Notes: generated by a model from the sequence alone, not told the origin. Counted from the stretch's first letter, positions 1-59,906 are shown. The stretch: DNA of 64,000 nucleotides from a virus (IMGVR_UViG_3300029288_006769:346367-410366); one strand, 5' to 3'. Numbers and translations are program-made.

Positions 1-303
1 AGCATAAGGAGAAAGATTGATATCACTCTCTACATAAGAAGGATCTATAGCTGTAAGTTTGAAATAATATCGAACATTTGGTGGTACAGGTACATCAGAA
101 TCTTTTACAAGAGTACAAACTTTATTTTTGTAATTTTTGTCAACTAGATTAGGAATACCAGTTTTTACTAATGTGTAAATACCTGCAGGAGTAGCAGAAC
201 TATAAAGATTATAGCTTTTTGCTTCAGACTTAGTTAAAGGGATCCAGCCAAAAAATATATCCCCATTTCGACGGTACAAAACTTGTAATCTAGGTGCCGC
301 CAT
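1..303 (-). CDS. Virion structural protein, FN3-like (partial, runs off window start); paralog of 422-853
   Basis: ATG at 303 with AAGGAG RBS; MAAPRLQVLYRRNGDIFFGW..SYNLYSSATPAGIYTL resembles QIIYRLRQLIRLF..SFNFYYSDAPSGVYTL of the next gene. Confidence 0.6.
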   Translation of the reverse strand, partial: MAAPRLQVLYRRNGDIFFGWIPLTKSEAKSYNLYSSATPAGIYTLVKTGIPNLVDKNYKNKVCTLVKDSDVPVPPNVRYYFKLTAIDPSYVESDINLSPYA

Positions 304-47748: not shown

Positions 47749-48788
47749 GAATCCAACCTTTTTGTTTTAATGATTTTGTAAAGAATTTCTACTATTTCAG
47801 CATCAAAAAGAATTCCACGTCCATCAAATAAAATTTGCAAAGCATATTCTATGTCTTGTGCTTTTCTATAAGGTCTATTTGAAACCAATGCATTGAAAGT
47901 GTCAGCAACAGCAAGAATACGAGCACCAGCAGGAATAGCTTTTTCTTTTAGTTTATGGGGATAACCTTCACCATTCCAACGTTCATGGTGATGCAAAACA
48001 TAATCACTTATTTTCCCAACAGCATCAACGGGCTTAATGATTTTATATGACATTTCTGAATGATGTTTGATGAGTTCATATTCTTCATCTGACAATTTGT
48101 CTTTCTTAAAAAGTATTTCATCCCTTATTCCGATTTTTCCAATGTCATGTAGTCTGCCAGCTATAGTAACATCTTCAATAAAGTTTGAGTCATCAGAATA
48201 TTCCCAACAAATTTTCTCTGAGAGTTCACCTACCATTTCTGAATGGTTTTTTGTGTACTCATCTTTTTGTTCTAGAGCATTTGTCAATGCTGTCAAAGTA
48301 TTAAAGAAAATTTTATCTCTCTCTTTTTGAATTGCAACTATTTTTGTACGCAGGTTTTCTGCTAGATGTGTGTTTCTCCTTAGATTCCTTGTATTACGAG
48401 AAGCTTGTAACAGTAACAAACCTAAAGTCATGAGTTGAAAAGGTTTACTCAAAAATGCATATATATTCTTTTTTATAATTGTAGTAATAAATTGATCTGT
48501 GTTGTAACCTGTAGTTAAAATAATTGTCAATTCAGGGTCAATTCCACTAGCTTGATCTATAAAATCAAACCCAGAGCAACCATTGTCAAGGCAAATATCG
48601 CAAAGAGCTACATCAAATTGATGAGCTTCTATAAGTTCTATTGCTTTAGGTAATGATTCAGCAACAAAGCAATGACCTCCATGATTGTCGACAAACAATT
48701 TGAGAACATCTAACTCTGTACGATCATCATCAATGACAAGCACAGTCAGATTCATCAAAAAGGGCGTGTGCTGAATTGAACTTGGCAT
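47745..48788 (-). CDS. Response regulator with HD-GYP phosphodiesterase (RpfG-like)
   Basis: REC: VIDDD..CDI..TG..SKPF; HD-GYP: YTKNHS, LHDIGK, HHERWNGEGYP, RPYR. Confidence 0.92.
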   Translation of the reverse strand: MPSSIQHTPFLMNLTVLVIDDDRTELDVLKLFVDNHGGHCFVAESLPKAIELIEAHQFDVALCDICLDNGCSGFDFIDQASGIDPELTIILTTGYNTDQFITTIIKKNIYAFLSKPFQLMTLGLLLLQASRNTRNLRRNTHLAENLRTKIVAIQKERDKIFFNTLTALTNALEQKDEYTKNHSEMVGELSEKICWEYSDDSNFIEDVTIAGRLHDIGKIGIRDEILFKKDKLSDEEYELIKHHSEMSYKIIKPVDAVGKISDYVLHHHERWNGEGYPHKLKEKAIPAGARILAVADTFNALVSNRPYRKAQDIEYALQILFDGRGILFDAEIVEILYKIIKTKRLDS

Positions 48789-51700
48789 TATTTTGTCCTT
48801 TTAAGTTCTTCTGCTATGATAGTATTTGTCGAGTCTAACGCCACAGCTTTTGTTATATATTCAGTATAAGTTTTGATTTCGCCATTAAATTTACAAATCA
48901 TTCCAAGCCCATAATATGACATAGCATATTTCGGATCTATTGAAATAGCTTTATTGTAATACTCTCTTGCTGTTTCGTTGTCTTTTTTCAACATATAGAT
49001 GTCAGCTCTTTTACAAATTGCTGGAGCATATCTAGAATCAACATAAGAAACCATTTTGCAATATTCCAAAGCATCATCAAGATTGCCTTGCTCAATTTTG
49101 ATTTGAGCTAAGAACATCATTAAATTAATATCTTGCGGCTCTTTCTTTCTCATTTCTACAGCTATATTTTCAGCACCAGCATAATCCTTCAATTGATATA
49201 GAATTTTTGCATAGATATCTAGATTTGTAAAACTCCTGTTTATTGCAAGCAATTGTTCTGTTTCATTTTTTGCTTCATTGTATTTAGAGAATCTTTTGTA
49301 AGAGTCAATTAGATATAGTCTTATTGTTGTGTCTTTAGATTTTTGTTGTTTTGCTGTTTGCAAGAATTCAAAGCCTTCACTCGAATAGGCATCCTTCAAA
49401 TAGATTTTGCCCAGTATATATAACATATCAGGGTCAGAATTGTTTTGTGCCTTCGCCATTCGTAGATAGGCTAGACTTTCATGTAGTTCGCCTACTTCAT
49501 AACAATAGATGCCGAGTTCCTTGTTTGCATTAAAGTTCTTACTGTCTCTGCCCAAAATCTCTTTATATGTCTTTATTTCCAAAACTCTGTTGCCGTTCTG
49601 TTTGTAGCAATATGCTAGTTTTGAAAGCATATCTACTGAAATAGTGTCTTTCAATGCTTTTGTTTTTTCAAAGTTATACTGAGCTCTCTTATAATCCCCA
49701 AGCTTGAAATAAATTCCACTTAGTCTTTCATAGTTTCTATAATCATAATAGAATCTTTTTGTATTGGCTACATAGATGTCTTTTGCAAGATTGACATGTA
49801 GCTGTTCTTGTAATCTTCCCATGTGGTAGAAATATGTAGAATCTCTAGTATTGATTTGACAATAGAGTTTATAGAACTTGATTGCTTTTTCTATATTTTT
49901 CAAATTTTCATGAGAAACAGCTATGAGTCTATAAACTTCAGCTATTCTAGAATAACTGTTGAATTTCGTACACATAGTCAAAATTGAAATTGCATTATCA
50001 TATTCTTTAGTCATGAAAAGCGCTCTGCCATATATAAAACTTTGATCAGCATTGCCTATAATATTTGCTAGAGCAAAGTATTTTACTGCTGACTTGTAGT
50101 CTTCTTTTTCATAAGAGTATACTCCTACTTTTAAACTCAATTTATCATTTTTATATTTTGCAAGATAAGATTTGTACGTGCTCATTTCTAAATCTTTTTT
50201 ACCTTGTTTAAGATAAAGAGCTGCAAGGTTGAAGTATTCGTTTTTTGCTGTTTGTACAAGATTGACATATTGTTCATAAGAAGCTATTGCATTTGAAATC
50301 GCACCAGTTCTTTCTTGACAAATAGCTATTTTTAGAATAATAGGTGCCGTGATTTTTTCTTGTTGTAATTTATTGTAGACATTCAATGCTTTTGTGTAGC
50401 TCCCCATATCATAATAAGTATTAGCAAGGCTTATTATAACCAAACTATCAGCTTGTTTTGTCACTAAAGCTCTATTGCAGATTCTTATAATTTCTGAGAC
50501 ATTTTTCTTGATTATGACTACATAGCTGAAATTCTTGAGATAGTCTATTCTTGAATAAGCTAATGTCATTGTTTTGTTGTATTCTAGATAGGCATTGTCA
50601 TAATCTTTAAGTTTGAAATAGACATCAGCTAATTTTTTATGAGCATCTACATTTTGAGCATCAAGATTCAGGATCTTTTTTAGATACACAATGGAATTCT
50701 GATTGTCTTTTGCTTTCCCTAGCAATGTAACAATTTTGAAATAGTCTGTGACATTGAAAACTCTAAGTTTTTCTAATTCATAATAGTGTTTCAATGCCTG
50801 AGCGTTTTTTTCAGTTGCATAATAAGAATTTGCAAGTCTTTCTCTAGATTCTATGTCTTTAGAATCGAGTTCTACAATTTTAGTGTCTATAACAAATAGT
50901 TGTTCTTTTCTATTTGTCTCTCTATAACAAACTGCTAAATCTTTGTATTGCTCAAGGCTTGGCGTAAATTTCACAAGAATTTCAAGTTGTTCAATTGCTT
51001 TTTGATATTTCTTTTTGTCAAGAGCAATTTTATAGATTATTTCTCTGCATTTATTGGAAGCAGCTCCTTTTCTTAAAAGTGTTTCAGAAGCATCTTTTGC
51101 TTTATCATAATCTTGTTGTTTGAAAGCACAAATCGCTATTCTTTCAAGAACATCAAAATTTTCTCTAAAAATATATGTCTTTTCGTAATATTTTTGAGCT
51201 TTATCATAATTTTTGTTTTCATAATAGTAATCACCAAGTTGCAAAGCATTTTCTGGCGTATCTTTTTGTTTTGAAAGCCGAACTGCTATTTTTTTTGCTT
51301 TTGTCTTATAATTCTGTTTTTCATAAGCATCGATCAACAGGAAATACATTGGAATAGCTGATGAGTCAACTCTTAAAACTTTATTTGCATATAATTCAAT
51401 TTTAGCATAATCATTTGTAGTTGCATAGTATTGGGCTATAAGTCTATTGTATTCAAGACCTGCGTTTAACACTTCAAATTCTTTTACATATTTCAAAACA
51501 CTTACATAATCTTTCAAATTCATGTATATTTTTGCTATTTTCAATTTAAGCTGCAATGCTTGTTTGGCATCAGCTTTTTTTGTTGCTGCTTCATAAAAAG
51601 CAAGAGCTCTTGAAATATTTTTTTGTTCTTCTAAGCATTTCCCTTGATTTGTCAAATCTTCATATTGAAAACTTTGTACTTGGAGTTTATTGTACTCAAC

Positions 51701-52387
51701 AAAAGCTTCTTGGCATTGTCCTTTTGAGATATAAAGTCTAGCAAGTTTGAGTCTGTCCTCTATAGAAATATTGTTTACAGTTTTCAAATACAATAATGAA
51801 GAATCAGATTGACCAAGAGCCGCATAACATAATGAAAGACGGAGTGCAATTGCATCATCTTTTTTAAGTGAATATTGTTTCAATAAATAGGGAATAGCTT
51901 GTTTATACAATTTTCTTTCATAGTAAATTGTGCCCAATGCTTCTTTAGCTTCTTTTGTTGTTCTAATTTTTTCGAACCATTTTTGGGCCTCATCATACCT
52001 TCTAATTTTGTAACAGATACTAGCATGTTGAAGTTTGTAACTTTCAGTAATTGAGTCTTTTTGTACGCATTTAGAAGAGAATTCATAAGCTCTTTCGCAA
52101 AGACCGATTTTACAATAGACTCTAGCAAGAGAAGTTAGAACAAGACAATTAGAAGGATAAAGTCTATATAAAGACAGATAGCAAGCAATTGCTTTTTCAT
52201 CAAAGCCGAGATTTTCATGTGCAAAACCATAAGCATAAGTAGTTTCTTCGTCTTGCACTTTATAGTTTGTCTCAATATATTTGATAACTTGCTTATAATC
52301 TTTTTTAAAAAGAAGACCATCAAGTTTCTTGTCGGCAAAACTTGCAATAGCGACTAAGAAAATCAAGAAAAATTTTAATGTTTTCAT
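48788..52387 (-). CDS. Large TPR-repeat protein with signal peptide
   Basis: Start MKTLKFFLIFLVAIASFA (Sec signal) at 52387 with GGAGG RBS; TPR-like helical repeats throughout. Confidence 0.85.
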   Translation of the reverse strand: MKTLKFFLIFLVAIASFADKKLDGLLFKKDYKQVIKYIETNYKVQDEETTYAYGFAHENLGFDEKAIACYLSLYRLYPSNCLVLTSLARVYCKIGLCERAYEFSSKCVQKDSITESYKLQHASICYKIRRYDEAQKWFEKIRTTKEAKEALGTIYYERKLYKQAIPYLLKQYSLKKDDAIALRLSLCYAALGQSDSSLLYLKTVNNISIEDRLKLARLYISKGQCQEAFVEYNKLQVQSFQYEDLTNQGKCLEEQKNISRALAFYEAATKKADAKQALQLKLKIAKIYMNLKDYVSVLKYVKEFEVLNAGLEYNRLIAQYYATTNDYAKIELYANKVLRVDSSAIPMYFLLIDAYEKQNYKTKAKKIAVRLSKQKDTPENALQLGDYYYENKNYDKAQKYYEKTYIFRENFDVLERIAICAFKQQDYDKAKDASETLLRKGAASNKCREIIYKIALDKKKYQKAIEQLEILVKFTPSLEQYKDLAVCYRETNRKEQLFVIDTKIVELDSKDIESRERLANSYYATEKNAQALKHYYELEKLRVFNVTDYFKIVTLLGKAKDNQNSIVYLKKILNLDAQNVDAHKKLADVYFKLKDYDNAYLEYNKTMTLAYSRIDYLKNFSYVVIIKKNVSEIIRICNRALVTKQADSLVIISLANTYYDMGSYTKALNVYNKLQQEKITAPIILKIAICQERTGAISNAIASYEQYVNLVQTAKNEYFNLAALYLKQGKKDLEMSTYKSYLAKYKNDKLSLKVGVYSYEKEDYKSAVKYFALANIIGNADQSFIYGRALFMTKEYDNAISILTMCTKFNSYSRIAEVYRLIAVSHENLKNIEKAIKFYKLYCQINTRDSTYFYHMGRLQEQLHVNLAKDIYVANTKRFYYDYRNYERLSGIYFKLGDYKRAQYNFEKTKALKDTISVDMLSKLAYCYKQNGNRVLEIKTYKEILGRDSKNFNANKELGIYCYEVGELHESLAYLRMAKAQNNSDPDMLYILGKIYLKDAYSSEGFEFLQTAKQQKSKDTTIRLYLIDSYKRFSKYNEAKNETEQLLAINRSFTNLDIYAKILYQLKDYAGAENIAVEMRKKEPQDINLMMFLAQIKIEQGNLDDALEYCKMVSYVDSRYAPAICKRADIYMLKKDNETAREYYNKAISIDPKYAMSYYGLGMICKFNGEIKTYTEYITKAVALDSTNTIIAEELKRTK

Positions 52388-52609
52388 ATTCCCTCCCATT
52401 GTTATGGGCAGCAAAAAAACATCCAGAACAACTTTTGAATTAATCAATGTTCCAGAAATCGTCAAGTTAATTTAATTTTGATAGGAAGGAATTTAATTGA
52501 GAGTAAATCAAATCTATCTAACCAACAAATATCTACCCTTATCCTTATATTATAGATTATACCACCTTATTGGTTTAAAATGAAAATAAAAAATATTTTT
52601 TAAAAATAA

Positions 52610-52646: not shown

Positions 52647-52787
52647 GAACAAATGCTCTTTAACAGCAAGTGCTTACATTACTTTGTAGCTCAGCTGGTA
52701 GAGCGATTGCCTATTAAGCGATAAGTCTCAGGTTCGAATCCTGAAAAAGTAGCCAAAAACTAGCATTTACAACTCGAGCATTTGTTC
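52647..52787 (+). ncRNA. Scaffolded tRNA-like RNA unit 1 (Y RNA-like); normal-order Asn-like domain, ATT anticodon
   Basis: 12 bp outer stem GAACAAATGCTC/GAGCATTTGTTC; scaffold TTTAAC..GTGCTTACAT / TAGCAT..AACTC; 76 nt cloverleaf 52680-52755 ending GCCA. Confidence 0.8.
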
Positions 52788-52979: not shown

Positions 52980-53115
52980 ACAAGTGTTCTTTAACTCTAA
53001 GTGCTTACATGCTTTTAAGCTCAATTGGTAGAGCAATTGTTATTGGAACAATTCGTTCTTGGTTCAAATCCAGGAAAAGCGACCAAAAAATAGCATTTAT
53101 AACTCGAACACTTGT
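52980..53115 (+). ncRNA. Scaffolded tRNA-like RNA unit 3; normal-order domain, TTG at anticodon position
   Basis: 10 bp outer stem ACAAGTGTTC/GAACACTTGT; 76 nt cloverleaf 53010-53085 ending ACCA. Confidence 0.8.
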
Positions 53116-53285: not shown

Positions 53286-53307
53286 AATTTTAAAATTCAC
53301 GATGAAG

Positions 53308-53343
53308 AAGAGGGCTCAATCAAAAGAGCCCTCTTTTGTTTTT
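53308..53343 (+). terminator. Rho-independent terminator closing the ncRNA array
   Basis: AAGAGGGCTC-AATCAAAA-GAGCCCTCTT followed by TTGTTTTT. Confidence 0.8.
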
Positions 53344-53413: not shown

Positions 53414-53665
53414 ATGTCAACGATCCATGTTGTTTACGGCGGAAGAAATGAAGATCTTGAGTTTGACGAAGTGTTCAGACCAGATAGACATGAAGCTCTG
53501 GGAGTAACAAATCCTGAACCAAGAAATATGACACCAGAAATTGTAAAACGAGCTTTAGCAAATCATTATGATGTGAATCAAAATGAATTTGAAGCTCATT
53601 TTGTCGAAATCAACTCGAACGGAAATATCACCGTACGTCCCAATGCGAGATGGGGAGGTCATTAA
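53414..53665 (+). CDS. Ubiquitin-like (beta-grasp) protein
   Basis: 83 aa ending NITVRPNARWGG-H; same operon as JAB and ThiF. Confidence 0.7.
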   Translation: MSTIHVVYGGRNEDLEFDEVFRPDRHEALGVTNPEPRNMTPEIVKRALANHYDVNQNEFEAHFVEINSNGNITVRPNARWGGH

Positions 53666-53666
53666 A

Positions 53667-55217
53667 ATGACAACTATGGTAAAAAAAGAACAAGACATCA
53701 GGGTTAAAATCCTCAACTCATTTATGACCTGTCCTCATCGAGACACGGGTGAATTGCAAAAAATTCATGCAGAAATGAGAGAGAAAGATCCTGTGTTCTA
53801 TGCACATCTTGCTGCATGGTACAAAAAGAATGGTGATCTTCGTGATCATAATGAAGTTTTCACAGCCATGTTGATCACAGATCCTTTCTTGGACAATCGC
53901 GAAACAGGTATTGCTCTTTTTCAAAATCAAGCTCCCTTTATGAAAATCAAAATTCTCAGTTTCATTAAAGGGAAGAAAATCACTCTGAGGGAAAAGACGG
54001 GTGAACAAGTCAAACGCGGAAAGAAAATGATTGATGAGATCAAAAATTCTAAGAAACAAGTTGGTCTTATCAAAAATATCCCAAACATACTTCGAACTGA
54101 AATCGAAAGATATGTTCGTTGGCTTGAAAAAGACAATGATAGATTTGATTCTGTTGCTCTGACAAATTTCAATGATTTGAAATCTTTTTATGCAGGTAAA
54201 GGTGTTCAGATCAAACCTTGTCCAAGAGCACAACAAATCCTGTTTGAAGAAAAATTTCCTGAAGATAGCAAACTTACTGTTTTCAAACAAATCAGAGAAG
54301 CTGATACGCCTGAGAAAGCAGCCAATCTGATGGTGCAACATAAAATTCCTTACACTATTGCAGTAGGTTTGAGAGATAAAATTACGCCATCTATTTTGAT
54401 TGCTTTGATCAATAACATGACTGCTCAGGAAATTATTACAAACATTGCTTCTTTGCAAGAAAAAGGTGCAATGGATAATCCTGGAACAAAAAAATTGATC
54501 ACAGAAAAACTTGAAGCAGCAAAAACAGCAAAGAATGTAACTGCTCTCAAATCCAAAAGAGCTAAGCAGACAGGAAGAGTCAAAGACGAAACTGTTCTCA
54601 AGCAGTTGGATGAAATTGCTGATAAGCAAATCAAAAAATCTGGGTCAATCAAAGTTTCTACTGGGTTGCTCATTGACAGATCAGGTTCTATGGATGTTGC
54701 AATTCAAGTTGGAAAACAGATTGCTGCAACAATTTGTGGTTCAATGGAAGCTGATTTGTTCGGTGTCGCATTTGATACTATGGCACAAGCTGTTAAAGCA
54801 AGTGAAAATACATTAACTGCTTGGGAAAAAGCATTTGCGCCAATCCATGCAAGCGGTAGAACTTCAGTTGGTTGTGCTCTTGATTTCATGATCAGGTATA
54901 AATTATATGCTGAACAGCTCATTATTGTGACTGATGAGGATGAAAACCAGAATCCACGATTTGCTGATGTATTTCCAAAGTATGTACAGGAAATGAAAGT
55001 AACTCCTGCAATTATTATCGTAAGAGTAGGTGACAAAAAAACTGGACTCAGTACTTCGCTTAAAAACGCAGGAATTTCTTTTGATTCATATGAACCATCA
55101 GGAAATGACTACTATGGACTTTCAGGTCTGATACCTTTGCTTTCTCGTAAATCAAAGTTAGACCTTGTTTATGAAATTATGGACTTTCCACTTCCGATTC
55201 GAAAGTCTTATGTCTAA
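53667..55217 (+). CDS. Ro60/TROVE-like helical domain plus C-terminal vWA
   Basis: vWA MIDAS IDRSGSM..GRTS..VTDEDEN; N-terminal DPVFYAHLAAWY..LRD and LINNMTAQEIITNIASL resemble TROVE segments; adjacent tRNA-like RNAs. Confidence 0.7.
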   Translation: MTTMVKKEQDIRVKILNSFMTCPHRDTGELQKIHAEMREKDPVFYAHLAAWYKKNGDLRDHNEVFTAMLITDPFLDNRETGIALFQNQAPFMKIKILSFIKGKKITLREKTGEQVKRGKKMIDEIKNSKKQVGLIKNIPNILRTEIERYVRWLEKDNDRFDSVALTNFNDLKSFYAGKGVQIKPCPRAQQILFEEKFPEDSKLTVFKQIREADTPEKAANLMVQHKIPYTIAVGLRDKITPSILIALINNMTAQEIITNIASLQEKGAMDNPGTKKLITEKLEAAKTAKNVTALKSKRAKQTGRVKDETVLKQLDEIADKQIKKSGSIKVSTGLLIDRSGSMDVAIQVGKQIAATICGSMEADLFGVAFDTMAQAVKASENTLTAWEKAFAPIHASGRTSVGCALDFMIRYKLYAEQLIIVTDEDENQNPRFADVFPKYVQEMKVTPAIIIVRVGDKKTGLSTSLKNAGISFDSYEPSGNDYYGLSGLIPLLSRKSKLDLVYEIMDFPLPIRKSYV

Positions 55218-56055
55218 TGTTTTTGATCTTATTAAAAAAGTAGGGGAGAAAGAAGCGGCTATTCAAGAGTTTATCTCCCCTATTTTTTTTAATGAATATG
55301 TAGCCACCAAGATCGAAGGCATTGTTTATAAATTCAAAATTTCGCAAAAAACTCCAGGTTGGTATAAAATACAATCCATAGACAGAAAGACAGCAAAAAC
55401 TGTCGAACAGGCTGATCTTTCTGATATCGATACTTATTTGAAGTTTCTAACCAAGATTCGTTTTATTCTTGTAATGAAAAAGAATAACGTTTATTTTGGT
55501 ATACCCGAAAAATCAAATAATTTAAAACTTCCATTTGAGCAAATGATCCCTGTGTATCTTACTGATGATTCAGTTCAAGATTTTGACAGAGTCATTGTGC
55601 GTTTTGATGGCGCAAATTTCTGGTACCATCAATTGGATTATTCAAATGACATTTCAAAGGCATCATATTTAAGAGAGAAATTGTTGAAAGTTGTCGATTC
55701 AAAGAAAATTAATTATTCGGGTTTGACAATCGAAGAAAAAATTGCTTATACTTTAAGAGTTACACTTGATAAAAAACTTGTAATTGACAAAAAGAAGACA
55801 TCTCTTAAAGATGATGTTGAACATGCTGGTGGCGAATTTATAAAATTTACGGAAAAAAGCGACCATTTCAGCGTAACTTATATTGTCGATGGACAACAAT
55901 ATACAAGCCATGTGAGTAAAAACGAAAGTCATAGCGTAATAACTGCTGGAATTTGTTTGTCTGGTGAAGATAGAAAATATGATTTAAAAAGTCTTATAAC
56001 AGTTATGAGAGAGGGTCAGCATGCAGGAAGAATCCATAGAACTCACAACTTTTAA
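55210..56055 (+). CDS. Conserved hypothetical protein, candidate divergent E2-like conjugating enzyme
   Basis: Single Cys, in the C-terminal AGICLSG..DLKSLITVMR, resembling the E2 GxICL active-site context; lies between Ubl/vWA and JAB. Confidence 0.45.
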   Translation: MSNVFDLIKKVGEKEAAIQEFISPIFFNEYVATKIEGIVYKFKISQKTPGWYKIQSIDRKTAKTVEQADLSDIDTYLKFLTKIRFILVMKKNNVYFGIPEKSNNLKLPFEQMIPVYLTDDSVQDFDRVIVRFDGANFWYHQLDYSNDISKASYLREKLLKVVDSKKINYSGLTIEEKIAYTLRVTLDKKLVIDKKKTSLKDDVEHAGGEFIKFTEKSDHFSVTYIVDGQQYTSHVSKNESHSVITAGICLSGEDRKYDLKSLITVMREGQHAGRIHRTHNF

Positions 56056-56434
56056 AGAAAGATGCTGGACATTATACGGTTTTAAAATTGGAAAATTTAT
56101 TTTCGGTTGGCTTAAATATTTGGATGAAGGTGAAGAGTTTGCTGTAGAATTTGATTGGCGAAAAGGTTTGTCAAAATTTATCATCGGGTGGTTTCATACC
56201 CATCCAACTACGGTTACTTTGAATCCAAGCAAAGAAGACAAAAAAACAATGCGTTCTTGGGTTAGAACTTTAGAACGCCCATTGATTTGTGGGATCATGT
56301 ATGACCATAAAAAAAGAAGAGAATTTCTTTGGAGAAATTGTTATTTATTTAAACGTTGGCCTGGCGGCAATGTGAACTACCAACCAATTATGAGAGATAA
56401 ACTAATCAAACATTTTTATATTGGAATTCTATGA
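56021..56434 (+). CDS. JAB/MPN metalloprotease
   Basis: IIGWFHTHP..PSKED (HxH-x7-S-x2-D). Confidence 0.85.
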   Translation: MQEESIELTTFKERCWTLYGFKIGKFIFGWLKYLDEGEEFAVEFDWRKGLSKFIIGWFHTHPTTVTLNPSKEDKKTMRSWVRTLERPLICGIMYDHKKRREFLWRNCYLFKRWPGGNVNYQPIMRDKLIKHFYIGIL

Positions 56435-56562
56435 AAAATAAAGGGTTCAAAAAAGAAACTCCTGAAGATGTTATTAACTGGCTTGCTTCTATGAAAATAA
56501 AGGTGCATTATTTAATAAAAAGCTCAGGAAAAAATTAGAAAAAAGAAAGAAAAAAATGAGCA

Positions 56563-56799
56563 TTGTCTAAATTTCCTTATAATGTCTATGCAACAAAAGA
56601 AAAAGTGTATATAGAAAAGAAAACAGGATGTGCAGCTCGCTTATGTTCTATATCTGCCGAATTTTATGACAGTAACGAAAAACAGGAAATAATTTTGGAA
56701 TGTTCATTTAAAAAATTCCAAGAGAAAGCTATGTCAAGAGGATATATAGTACTTGATAAATTCAGACCTGCATGGGATATTGAAAGAGAGATAAAATGA
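56563..56799 (+). CDS. Hypothetical protein
   Basis: 78 aa, coupled to ThiF start. Confidence 0.5.
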   Translation: MSKFPYNVYATKEKVYIEKKTGCAARLCSISAEFYDSNEKQEIILECSFKKFQEKAMSRGYIVLDKFRPAWDIEREIK

Positions 56800-57428
56800 G
56801 TACTTTCAAACATGAAGAACTATATCGGGAAAAAGTATTATTCGAAATGATGTCAAAATTTTCTATTACTATGTGTGGTGCTGGAGCTATAGGTTCTAAT
56901 CTTGTCGATAATTTGATCCGTCAAGGCTTCAAAAAAATTTCCGTAATAGATTTTGACAGAGTTGAAGATGGAAATAGACATACACAAATATGGAGCTCAA
57001 GAGAGATTGGACAGCTTAAAGTAACAGCATTAAGAAATAGAATGTTTGAAGTTCTCAATACGCAAATTACTGCAATTTCTAAAAAACTTGATAAATCAAA
57101 TCTTAATCTTATAGAGCCTTCAAGTTTAGTTATTGATGGCTTTGACAATGTACCAAGTAGAAAATTGATAACAGAATATTGTAAAGAAAATAACATTGAT
57201 TGTTTGCATATTGGTTTGTTCCAAGATTATGCTGAAATAATCTGGAACGAAAAATACAGAGTGCCTGATGAAGTAACTAATATGGATATATGTGAATATC
57301 CTTTAGCAAGGAATATAATTTTGTTGGCTATTGCTGTAGCGACAGAGATATTAATAGCATATTTAGAAACAGGTGAAAAGCGTAATTTCGTGATAACTTT
57401 AAAAGACTTCAAAATTTCGAGAATATAA
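56796..57428 (+). CDS. ThiF/E1-like adenylyltransferase
   Basis: CGAGAIGS, IDFDRVEDGNRHTQ, IGQLKV, IDGFDN..SR; candidate catalytic Cys in DICEYP. Confidence 0.88.
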   Translation: MSTFKHEELYREKVLFEMMSKFSITMCGAGAIGSNLVDNLIRQGFKKISVIDFDRVEDGNRHTQIWSSREIGQLKVTALRNRMFEVLNTQITAISKKLDKSNLNLIEPSSLVIDGFDNVPSRKLITEYCKENNIDCLHIGLFQDYAEIIWNEKYRVPDEVTNMDICEYPLARNIILLAIAVATEILIAYLETGEKRNFVITLKDFKISRI

Positions 57429-57940
57429 TGGATATTTGGTTCAATATGTTGATCGGTATTCCCGGTTCTGGGAAATCTACTTGGCTAAACATACAACCTC
57501 GAAAAACTTATGTTGTCTGTCCTGATTCAATACGATTATATTTAACTGGTGATATTTCAAATCATAGTCAAGAAGAGACTGTTTGGAATATTGCAAAATA
57601 CACAACACGTTGGGCTTTAGTAAATAATATTTCAATAACATTTGATGCAACTAACACAAGTACATTTTTAAGAAGAGACTTTCTTGGGGCTCTTCCTCTT
57701 CAAGTATCGGATTTTAAACGCAAAGCAATTCTTTTTCCTACAGACCCAAATGTGGCTGTTTCAAGAGTTAATGCTAGAACATTTGGCTCAAAAGTTCCAC
57801 CAGAAAAAATATTTCAATCACATCTATTGTTTCAGCAAACTTTGAAAGATATTTTAGATGAAGATTGGGACTGTATAGAAACGATAGGAGACTCAAATGG
57901 CGGAAAAACTGTTAAAATCCCGGAAAGTGTCAGGACCTGA
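57428..57940 (+). CDS. P-loop kinase, polynucleotide-kinase-like (AAA_33)
   Basis: LIGIPGSGKST, CPDSIR, FDATN..R, RVNAR..VP. Confidence 0.8.
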   Translation: MDIWFNMLIGIPGSGKSTWLNIQPRKTYVVCPDSIRLYLTGDISNHSQEETVWNIAKYTTRWALVNNISITFDATNTSTFLRRDFLGALPLQVSDFKRKAILFPTDPNVAVSRVNARTFGSKVPPEKIFQSHLLFQQTLKDILDEDWDCIETIGDSNGGKTVKIPESVRT

Positions 57941-59309
57941 AAACGATGGTTTTACAGAAACAGTAAAACATAAAGTTTTATTCTGCGGCAACCCTGAAGG
58001 AAACAACAACAAGTTCTATTCAATAGAGCTTCAAAAAAATTCTAAAGGTCAATATCGGTTATTTACTCATTATGGCCGTCTCGGAAAAACCGATGTTTAT
58101 GAAGTCCGCGATGAATACCTCGGTAGACCTCTCGATCTTTCAACAGCAGATCGTGAATTTGAAGTTATCCTCGCTTCAAAACTCAAAGGCAAGAAAAAAG
58201 AAAGCGAACTCGGTGGAAACCGTGTTGAAAAATATGAATTGGTCGAGACATTCGCACCCACGGTTGGCTCTGTCAATGTCCGCGGAAAAAATGTTGGCAT
58301 TACTGTTTCAGTCAAAAAAGATGATGTTGTTGACTCTTATTCCAATCCGGAAGTTGCTCGAATTATCCGTCAAATTGTCGATGAAAACATCCATACCATT
58401 TCTACATTGACAACCTTGAAACTAACATCAAATGGGTTTGAAACTCCCCTGGGTCCCGTCACAAAAGAACATGTGGCAAATGCAAGAGTCCCACTTATGT
58501 CTTTGAAATCTCTGATGGTTAATGACGAAATCAACCCCGACAATCAATTGACTCGAGATCACAATGCAAAATATTTCTCCATGATTCCCCATCCCTTTGG
58601 ACACAAAATAACAAAAGATGACTGGATTCTTTCTGCGGCAAAACTCGCCGAAGAATTCGAATTGCTTGACAACCTTGAATCAGCTGTTACAATGGGTGCC
58701 GCCATGCAAAATGCCGCACAACAAAAACGCGCTCTTGGTACAGATATCGAAATAGTTTCCGACAAAAGAGAAATTGATCGAATTTACTCCTATATTACGA
58801 CAACAAAAGCGGGAAATCATCGTGGTTCTGATGTGTGGAACTGGAAACCTAAAAACGTTTTCAAAATCAAAATACCTGCAGAAAGAGCAAGATTTGAAAA
58901 AACTGAAAAACAATTCGGTAACCAACATGAACTCTTCCATGGCTCAAAAAATGGCAATATTTTGAGTATTCTCAAGGGGGGTCTGATCATCCCTTCATGC
59001 AATGCCGGTCATGTCACAGGTCGTATGTTCGGTGATGGTATTTATTTTGCTAATGCATCGACGAAATCTCTTAATTACTCTACAGGATTTTGGGGCGGAC
59101 GTGGCAATAAAAATTCAAATTCTTTCTTATTTCTTGCAAATGTTGCTATGGGAAAAACATTTGTAGCCCATGACGCTCGGTATTCTGGAATACCACATGG
59201 ATATGACTCAATTCATGCTCAAAAAGGAAGATCGTTATATAATGACGAATTTATTGTTTTCAAATTGCAACAAGCCACTTTAACATATCTGGTTGAAATG
59301 ACCAAATAA
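57897..59309 (+). CDS. WGR-domain poly(ADP-ribose) polymerase
   Basis: NNNKFY..THYGRLG (WGR); YFSMIPH (regulatory); LFHGS, GRMFGDGIYFA, SLNY, NDEFIVF (H-Y-E triad). Confidence 0.9.
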   Translation: MAEKLLKSRKVSGPENDGFTETVKHKVLFCGNPEGNNNKFYSIELQKNSKGQYRLFTHYGRLGKTDVYEVRDEYLGRPLDLSTADREFEVILASKLKGKKKESELGGNRVEKYELVETFAPTVGSVNVRGKNVGITVSVKKDDVVDSYSNPEVARIIRQIVDENIHTISTLTTLKLTSNGFETPLGPVTKEHVANARVPLMSLKSLMVNDEINPDNQLTRDHNAKYFSMIPHPFGHKITKDDWILSAAKLAEEFELLDNLESAVTMGAAMQNAAQQKRALGTDIEIVSDKREIDRIYSYITTTKAGNHRGSDVWNWKPKNVFKIKIPAERARFEKTEKQFGNQHELFHGSKNGNILSILKGGLIIPSCNAGHVTGRMFGDGIYFANASTKSLNYSTGFWGGRGNKNSNSFLFLANVAMGKTFVAHDARYSGIPHGYDSIHAQKGRSLYNDEFIVFKLQQATLTYLVEMTK

Positions 59310-59318
59310 GGAGGTTCT

Positions 59319-59906
59319 ATGTCTGATGATTCTATCATCCAAGCAAAAGTCGAGCAATTCGGTGCCCAAGGAGGAATGTTTACATCGGTAGACATCGGAA
59401 ACTCCATCAAAGAAGATCAGCACTGGGTGAAAAATTCCATAGTTGCTGCCTGGCTCAGACAAAACGCATTGGTTGTCCTGCAAGGGTATGCAACAACTCT
59501 TATCGATGTTCAAACGTCCAATGGTCCGGCAACCGCTTTCTTGTATCATCCCATGGGTTCAGATCCCAATGATTACAAAAGAAGAAATCAGAGCGCAATG
59601 CCCCCGCAAAATACCGTCAATTTTCCGGGAACAACTCCGTCGACAAACTCACAAAAAACAAAAGTTCGTTCCGATTGCAATGCCAGACTTCGTATCCCTG
59701 CTTCCATCGTCAGACAACTCGGCTGGAATCCCGGCGACATGGTTGACAATTCCAAAATCATCATCAATGGTACAACGCCCTTGACAGACGGAAACATCGT
59801 CCATTCAGATGGACGTATTACATTCCGTCGTAGTTGTCTCGGTTTCGGTGACGGTCCAGTCATGGCCTATGTCGAAAATGGTTGCCTGCATTTCGAGAAG
59901 CCATAA
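59319..59906 (+). CDS. Hypothetical protein with AbrB-like C-terminal region
   Basis: AGGAGG RBS; DCNARLRIPASIVRQLGWNPGD. Confidence 0.6.
   Translation: MSDDSIIQAKVEQFGAQGGMFTSVDIGNSIKEDQHWVKNSIVAAWLRQNALVVLQGYATTLIDVQTSNGPATAFLYHPMGSDPNDYKRRNQSAMPPQNTVNFPGTTPSTNSQKTKVRSDCNARLRIPASIVRQLGWNPGDMVDNSKIIINGTTPLTDGNIVHSDGRITFRRSCLGFGDGPVMAYVENGCLHFEKP

Follow-up and report, generated by a model that had tools for sequence, protein, structure and literature searches.

The stretch of viral DNA considered here (IMGVR_UViG_3300029288_006769:346367-410366), a window of 64,000 nt whose positions are counted from its first letter, carries a tightly packed operon. It encodes a small ubiquitin-like protein (Ubl), a Ro60-like protein, a 281-amino-acid (aa) protein with a single cysteine (X281), a JAB-type metalloprotease and an E1-like enzyme of the ThiF family, in this order (Table 1). 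An initial annotation of the sequence had read four of these genes as a phage-encoded ubiquitin-like cascade, composed of a Ubl with a masked di-glycine, a JAB protease, an E1 and a cryptic E2 candidate. The features on which it was built are all present in the sequence, i.e. the open reading frames (ORFs), the RWGG-H end of the Ubl, the GAGAIGS, DGFDN and DICEYP motifs of the ThiF protein without CxxC pairs, and the single cysteine of X281 in AGICLSG; a 516-aa Ro60-like gene in the middle of the module and a non-conserved 78-aa ORF had been passed over. The Ro60-like gene begins one base past the Ubl stop codon, the start of X281 overlaps the stop codon of the Ro60-like gene, the JAB gene in turn starts within X281, and a gap of 128 nt separates JAB from the 78-aa ORF. 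No terminator on the + strand comparable to the hairpin upstream of the Ubl gene was found between 53414 and 59309. Since this hairpin sits between the two tRNA-like RNA genes and the protein operon, the two are probably separate transcripts.

Table 1. Features of the Ubl module and its surroundings, with positions in the 64,000-nt window.
Feature	Position	Strand	Basis
tRNA-like small RNA genes, upstream of Ro60-like gene	52680-52755 and 53010-53085	+	ARAGORN
Intrinsic-terminator-like hairpin	53306-53337	+	12-bp stem, 6 GC pairs, T run
Ubl, 83 aa, β-grasp-like, ends ...NARWGGH	53414-53665	+	AlphaFold2 model, family alignments
Ro60-like protein, 516 aa, TROVE + vWA	53667-55217	+	Family profile, MIDAS DxSxS
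X281, 281 aa, one Cys in TAGICLSG	55210-56055	+	Tandem OB folds, invariant Cys249
JAB/MPN+ metalloprotease, 137 aa, GWFHTHP...S..D	56021-56434	+	JAMM motif, family profile
78-aa ORF between JAB and E1, outside the conserved module	56563-56799	+	No family match
E1-like ThiF protein, 210 aa: GAGAIGS, DGFDN, DICEYP, no CxxC	56796-57428	+	Pfam ThiF
P-loop PNK-like kinase	57428-57940	+	Pfam AAA_33
WGR-regulatory-catalytic PARP	57897-59309	+	Pfam PARP/PARP_reg/WGR

The five genes recur together far beyond chance. At least 252 relatives of X281 are present in the protein collection, many of them on contigs of 120-500 kb, and the order Ubl, Ro60-like, X281, JAB, ThiF is kept in 19 IMG/VR phage loci, down to an X281 identity of 27%; variable inserted genes in these loci are found mainly between X281, JAB and ThiF. 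A search of bacterial contigs, with one genome per species, yielded 410 stretches that encode an X281 relative, 80 of which were examined. In these 80 loci, the gene order Ubl-Ro60-X281-(JAB)-E1 and the strand are as in the phages. The carriers comprise Planctomycetota, filamentous Cyanobacteria (Nostoc, Microcoleus, Okeania, Trichodesmium), Desulfobacterales, Acidobacteria and others, and some copies reside on complete chromosomes of 6-7 Mb. The bacterial genes for X281 and E1 adjoin or overlap, with a median gap of 130 nt. All-against-all clustering of the neighbours in the 80 bacterial and 16 phage loci revealed no sixth widely conserved family. As the module is shared by huge phages and bacteria, it is not phage-specific: its assignment to the phage side in the initial annotation is correct for the phages themselves, but has to be widened to bacterial chromosomes.

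The 210-aa E1-like enzyme matches Pfam ThiF with 85.9 bits (cut-off 28.1). Among 81 phage and bacterial homologues, conservation of its adenylation residues R11, G28/30/33, D52, K75, D117, N118 and R122 is 97% or higher, which bears out the intact adenylation motif noted earlier, and Cys166, in the motif D-x-C-[ED]-Y-P, is kept in all of them (81/81). The family profile (residues 7-145) matches 9egb, Uba1, Uba6, SAE2, TcdA, MoeB, Uba4, MccB, ThiF, Uba5 and Cap2 at similar scores, and alignment to the E1 half of Cap2 with hhalign gives a probability of 98%. The protein fits none of the curated equivalogs (ThiF, MoeB, UbaA, TcdA, Cap2), as its best NCBIfam score is 83.6 bits against a cut-off of 159, and it lacks the structural zinc CxxC pairs typical of MoeB/ThiF. 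Likewise, 31 of the PADLOC E1-E2 models match it, every one below the family cut-off. Because all NCBIfam equivalogs fall below their cut-offs, the enzyme is best placed in a separate, minimal subfamily.

The JAMM motif of the JAB protein is complete, with E13, H59, H61, S70 and D73 invariant in 14 homologues. The single sequence scores 20.2 bits against Pfam Prok-JAB, under the cut-off of 25; the family profile retrieves the Rpn11-like 6fjv at 2.8e-8 as well as AMSH, Rpn11, BRCC36 and JAMM1. A candidate substrate is the Ubl, for which an exhaustive search gave 22 relatives. Its residue G81 is invariant in 29 aligned sequences, where it is preceded by F or W and followed by zero to four variable residues, and all 28 bacterial homologues stop exactly at this glycine (...RP[EQ]A[VI][FY]G). 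The residue before the conserved glycine is thus F, W or Y when phages and bacteria are taken together. The di-glycine itself varies, since the Ubl of the closest relative ends in WGRG instead of the WGGH found here. Conservation at the C-terminus centres on G81, which follows W80, and hence the removable tail is likely G82-H83 rather than H83 alone. Of the masked di-glycine proposed initially, the C-terminal glycine with a tail therefore stands, but the conserved end is aromatic-Gly. Tail and protease go together: a JAB gene lies nearby for all seven tailed Ubls of known context (7/7), and the Ubls of all loci that lack JAB are tail-less (24/24), which are counts from lineages that are not independent of each other. 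A tail-trimming role of JAB on the Ubl, as had been suggested, fits these data. Another protein of the phage genome, 197 aa long and ending in VFG, was rejected as a chance match, given that a [FWY]G end occurs in 8 of the 1184 ORFs and that the protein does not match the Ubl profile.

The AlphaFold2 model of the Ubl (predicted local distance difference test score, pLDDT, 86.4) consists of two strands, a helix and two further strands (ββ-α-ββ). Among the top 50 structural matches listed by Foldseek and in both VIA lists, almost all are β-grasp proteins, including ubiquitin (4auq_F; Z 4.5, root-mean-square deviation 2.4, 59 residues aligned, with model residues 1..81 on ubiquitin 2..76), MoaD (5mpo_B, Z 4.5), PB1 domains, ISG15, SAMP1 and TtuB. 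The model is consistent with a β-grasp fold, with modest scores, and the terminal glycine signature is the stronger argument for a Ubl.

The 516-aa protein at the centre of the module is recognised by its family profile, which matches human RO60 (9nen_A, E 4.8e-8), the TROVE structures 9l5y/9kop (3.1e-5) and Rsr (2nvo, 0.031). The single sequence has no Pfam match, TROVE included; it does match phrog_850, 'RNA-binding protein', at E 4.4e-4. In its vWA domain, D337, S339 and S341 of the DxSxS metal ion-dependent adhesion site (MIDAS) are invariant. Judged from sequence, this protein and the tRNA-like RNAs upstream are predicted to constitute a Ro60-type particle.

X281 shows no match to any Pfam, PADLOC or NCBIfam family, and the protein atlas gave no usable match for the whole protein or for its C-terminal part. 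According to its AlphaFold2 model (pLDDT 85.6), residues ~20-145 form two five-strand barrels, i.e. tandem OB folds, which in Foldseek and VIA match S1/CSD domains of RNase II and the exosome, IF1 and the OB rings of proteasomal Rpt proteins; Z scores reach 7.8 for eIF5A (2eif) and 6.3 for the double OB of Mpa (7pxc_B, over residues 18-145). The C-terminal part comprises a long helix (174-205), four strands (209-245), a loop with Cys249 and a helix (259-271). Polar residues of the N-terminal part that seemed invariant from the phage sequences are not conserved in bacteria. The most conserved patch of the family is G-x-C-L-x3-D, in which G247, C249, L250 and D254 are each found in 97/97 phage and bacterial homologues. 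A phosphatase-like (CX5R) or rhodanese-like reading of C-L-S-G-E-D-R was dropped, as R255 varies among the homologues, in contrast to the invariant D254. Separately, several X281 homologues (L014:6998-7939, L015:6980-7927, L017:3172-4122, L021:6992-7936) carry long acidic C-terminal tails that end in aromatic residues (e.g. ...DDDYDDYY, ...EDDY) and recall the protein-recruiting tails of OB-fold single-stranded DNA-binding proteins; the copy in the window has no such tail.

Taken together, the module may couple a Ro60-type RNA particle to a minimal ubiquitin-like activation and transfer system, a reading to which we assign a probability of roughly 55%. From the observed gene set and its conservation, the folds, the intact motifs, the invariant glycine and the two invariant cysteines, we infer the chemical steps, the direction of transfer and the target. 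JAB would remove G82-H83 from the 83-aa Ubl to expose W80-G81, and may also reverse conjugates. Then, the E1 would adenylate the carboxylate of G81 and capture the Ubl on Cys166; that the Ubl is the substrate of the E1 is very probable. Subsequently, the Ubl could pass to Cys249 of X281, which would act as an E2-analogous carrier outside the UBC family or as the first acceptor, or it could instead be attached directly to a target. A role of Cys249 in carrying the Ubl is tentative. The OB folds of X281, together with Ro60 and the RNAs, would bring the reaction to RNA-bound partners. It is somewhat more probable that the transfer ends in a covalent conjugate than in a thiocarboxylate.

Several results weigh against this reading, and those on X281 also bear on a rival in which the locus encodes a canonical E1-E2-JAB cascade with X281 as a true, very divergent E2 of UBC fold. 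Searches of 17 isolated X281 C-terminal domains yielded no UQ_con or Prok-E2 match even at E ≤ 10, a PDB profile search with the X281 family retrieved no E2, no PADLOC E1-E2 model matches the protein, and hhalign of X281 to a Cap2 E2-E1 alignment gives a probability of 0.08%, compared with 98% for the E1 control. The Cap2 E2 profile is shallow and covers one E2 family, as it is built from three Cap2-like proteins (Prok-E2_B, from 301 genomes of the phylum of the Microcoleus genome) and eight mostly close homologues. The initial annotation had looked to structure prediction for a β-grasp Ubl and a UBC fold in X281; the former has its β-grasp-like model, but no E2 appears among the best 50 Foldseek matches listed for whole X281 (E ≤ 0.018) or in the VIA lists, although the PDB is rich in E2 chains, and these lists are filled by the OB domain and therefore test the C-terminal domain poorly. 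In favour of a true E2, the order of helix, four strands, Cys loop and helix in residues 174-271 of the whole-protein model is compatible with the UBC core, the invariant Cys249 lies in G-I-C-L, and the 424-kb phage genome encodes no other, canonical E2 (UQ_con, Prok-E2_A/B/D). The likeness to the E2 site pointed out earlier is nevertheless partial, since G-I-C-L lacks one residue in comparison with the E2 signature G-x-I-C-L, and a His-Pro-Asn (HPN) motif is missing; the only nearby histidine, H241, is located eight residues before the cysteine and is variable, being R or L in many homologues. A true E2 is hence improbable, and the proposal of a cryptic E2 finds no support in its original form: homology of X281 to E2 families was not detected, and the only folds recognised in it are OB folds. 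The protein rather appears to represent a new family and a plausible functional counterpart of an E2. A weak UQ_con match elsewhere in the phage genome (11.2 bits, E 0.058) was rejected, because it lies antisense to another gene in a low-complexity frame.

The missing E2 homology also speaks for a system with no E2 of the kind in which the SAMP proteins are activated by UbaA. The E1 alone would then activate and attach the Ubl, and X281 would be an adaptor binding RNA or Ro60, or else a target, with some other task for Cys249. Haloferax and Thermus are established cases of Ubl conjugation that proceeds without an E2 and in the presence of a JAMM protease. X281 has OB folds of a type found in RNA-binding and proteasomal ATPase proteins, and X281 is translationally coupled to Ro60 in the phages. 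However, no other feature of X281 is as conserved as its Cys motif, an argument for chemistry at this site, and in bacteria it is the E1 gene to which X281 is tightly coupled. An E2-less system is conceivable, with the odds clearly against it. The archaeal SAMP1-3/UbaA/HvJAMM1 and the Thermus TtuB/TtuC systems with their JAMM resemble the module in a small β-grasp or β-grasp-like protein with a reactive C-terminal glycine, a single E1 of MoeB/ThiF size with a cysteine, and a JAMM protease, while an E2 or E3 is not recognisable in any of them. In contrast to these systems, the Ubl described here ends in aromatic-Gly instead of Gly-Gly, the E1 is shorter and without zinc CxxC pairs, a fourth protein with an invariant cysteine is obligatory, the link to Ro60 and tRNA-like RNAs is fixed, and no sulfur-transfer partners are encoded.

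Further points against a coupled activation and transfer system concern the remaining proteins. The fold scores of the Ubl are modest (Z ≤ 4.5, and no Foldseek match at E ≤ 1e-3), and neither Pfam nor a PDB profile search gave a sequence match to a known Ubl. The deconjugation step is not universal, because the cyanobacterial modules lack JAB in cis; Microcoleus has a single Prok-JAB, far from the module. An X281-JAB fusion (a 502-aa ORF, L028:6827-8335, with X281 as residues 74-346 and Prok-JAB as residues 376-488) would speak for a link between the two proteins, but it is the only one among the 80 bacterial loci, comes from a single metagenome-assembled genome of a Planctomycetaceae member and could be an assembly frameshift. 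A search for X281 in longer fused proteins (≥554 aa) was negative, in itself weak evidence. Finally, the E1 resembles sulfur-carrier or RNA-modifying E1s (ThiF, MoeB, TcdA) as much as conjugating ones.

This last point leads to the sulfur-carrier alternative that was already raised in the initial annotation. In this case, the Ubl would be adenylated and converted into a thiocarboxylate, with Cys166 and/or Cys249 relaying a persulfide, and the sulfur would be delivered to the tRNA-like RNAs or to host tRNA, leaving JAB with the sole task of maturing the carrier. Maturation of masked sulfur carriers by JAMM proteases is established for QbsD/QbsE and Mec+/CysO. Within NCBIfam, the E1 is closest to ThiS/MoaD adenylyltransferases, each of which scores below its cut-off; the Ubl has MoaD and TtuB among its best structural matches, and the setting is centred on RNA. 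The end of the Ubl is, however, aromatic-Gly and not the Gly-Gly of known sulfur carriers, and the E1 is devoid of the zinc CxxC pairs. Support in cis is lacking as well, since the 424-kb phage genome encodes no PP-loop ATPase, cysteine desulfurase or rhodanese, for which host enzymes could substitute, and no such sulfur gene is among the conserved neighbours in the 80 bacterial and 16 phage loci. A sulfur carrier is thus rather unlikely. The QbsE/QbsD and CysO/Mec+ pairs share with the module a JAMM protease that removes residues past the C-terminal glycine of a ThiS-like carrier activated by a ThiF-like enzyme, but these carriers belong to biosynthetic clusters that include sulfur acceptors, and have a Gly-Gly end; the module shows neither trait.

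The similarity of the E1 to TcdA, which is among the top PDB matches of its profile (E 1.3e-18), raises another scenario. Here, the E1-like enzyme would act on RNA, as TcdA does on t6A in tRNA, and the 83-aa protein would be an RNA-binding β-grasp protein. The adjoining tRNA-like RNAs and Ro60 are in line with such a role, but the TcdA match is not specific, because the Rossmann part is common to all E1 families, which reach similar scores there, and the invariant C-terminal glycine, the variable tails and the linked JAMM protease would remain unexplained. We consider an RNA substrate of the E1 highly improbable.

Returning to the coupling of a Ro60-type particle to Ubl transfer, RNA-guided tagging could be envisaged as a more far-reaching version. 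The Ro60 particle, together with the OB folds in X281, would recognise a particular state of RNA, for example damaged or foreign RNA or a tRNA-like bait, and the Ubl, borne by Cys249 of a carrier whose evolution was independent of the UBC fold, would be attached to the protein bound to this RNA. In the boldest version, the Ubl would be esterified to the 3' end of RNA like an amino acid on tRNA. Such tagging is a speculative idea and quite unlikely in itself.

Among known systems, Bil (BilABCD), type II CBASS with Cap2/Cap3 and Bub likewise combine an E1, a JAB-type or other peptidase and a Ubl or Ubl-like C-terminus (PMC11601596; 10.1101/2023.09.26.559546). All three have a detectable UBC-type E2, fused or separate, whereas the module considered here has none, is built around Ro60 and occurs in phages as well as bacteria. 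Ro60/Rsr-Y RNA particles (Rsr-YrlA; the rsr-yrlBA-rtcBA operon) are similar in their TROVE+vWA ring protein beside tRNA-like small RNAs (Sim et al. 2020, cited in PMC7824862). RNA-repair genes are found near Ro60 particles, to which the PNK-like kinase and the PARP of the phage and the Tpt1/KptA of cyanobacterial versions correspond. The Ro60-like protein of the module is very divergent, as it is found by family profile only, and known Ro60 particles come without a linked Ubl, E1 or JAB.

A looser parallel is offered by eukaryotic Ubls. Once a short tail has been cut off, Atg8/Atg12 and UFM1 terminate in aromatic-Gly or X-Gly, and they employ non-canonical or minimal E1s and atypical E2s without HPN. 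With respect to Atg8/Atg12 and UFM1/Uba5, there is resemblance only: no sequence relationship was detected, the setting here is prokaryotic or viral, and a JAMM instead of a cysteine protease would trim the Ubl.

Ro60 particles and Ubl conjugation are each well studied, but no link between them is known in prokaryotes. Full-text literature searches returned no paper that ties Ro60/TROVE to E1, JAB or Ubl, with a mention in Burroughs & Aravind 2016 (Nucleic Acids Research, RNA repair systems) being possible. A jumbo-phage survey mentions TROVE proteins only as parts of RNA repair (PMC7824862), and a preprint on Asgard viruses lists Ro60 and ThiF genes separately. If true, the proposed coupling would provide Ro60 biology with a testable enzymatic output and extend the known Ubls by a family whose aromatic-Gly end is Atg8-like; the module may also reveal a thioester carrier without a UBC fold. 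Its carriers include jumbo phages and bacteria of complex lifestyle such as filamentous Cyanobacteria and Planctomycetota. Direct tests are feasible, given that the parts are small and soluble-looking and that the module is present in cultured strains of Nostoc and Microcoleus.

The genes around the module vary between carriers. In the window, the PNK-like kinase gene overlaps the PARP gene, both in the same operon as the Ubl module; the pair occurs only in the four nearest relatives (L001-L004) and is absent from more distant loci. Nine cyanobacterial loci encode a Tpt1/KptA RNA 2'-phosphotransferase between Ro60 and X281 (e.g. L083:3894-4472). Together, the kinase and PARP of the phage and Tpt1/KptA in Cyanobacteria suggest a recurring tie to RNA-end chemistry. 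The 78-aa ORF has no family match and is missing from the closest relative, L001, where JAB and ThiF are directly adjacent. Visual comparison shows a likeness to a small ORF at L001:12499-12741 (G..AR.C.IS.E[FY]), and the 78-aa ORF could be one of a family of small, mobile phage genes. Directly after the PARP, a 195-aa protein (59319-59906) that is conserved in L001 shows a weak match of MazE/AbrB type (SpoVT-like) in residues 122-142. Just upstream of the tRNA-like RNAs, a divergent gene on the - strand (48788-52465) encodes a TPR-rich protein of 1225 aa whose N-terminus carries a signal-like segment.

The complete virus record comprises 424,144 bp, with a completeness of 98% according to CheckV, and encodes a portal protein, a large terminase, a prohead protease, a ribonucleotide reductase and helicases; each gene of the module is present in one copy. 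At the DNA level, the region has no match among the phage records of INPHARED. Metagenomes of landfill, leachate, wastewater and groundwater, generated in several studies, contain near-identical DNA. Three read-sized contigs (≥99% identical) within X281 and JAB originate from an RNA-library run (X14) and are not counted as evidence of expression, because DNA carry-over is possible. In a wastewater DNA run (X4), a second contig with ~90-95% identity over part of the Ro60-like gene (53760-54400) occurs beside a near-identical one, and hence two related phage strains seem to coexist in this sample.

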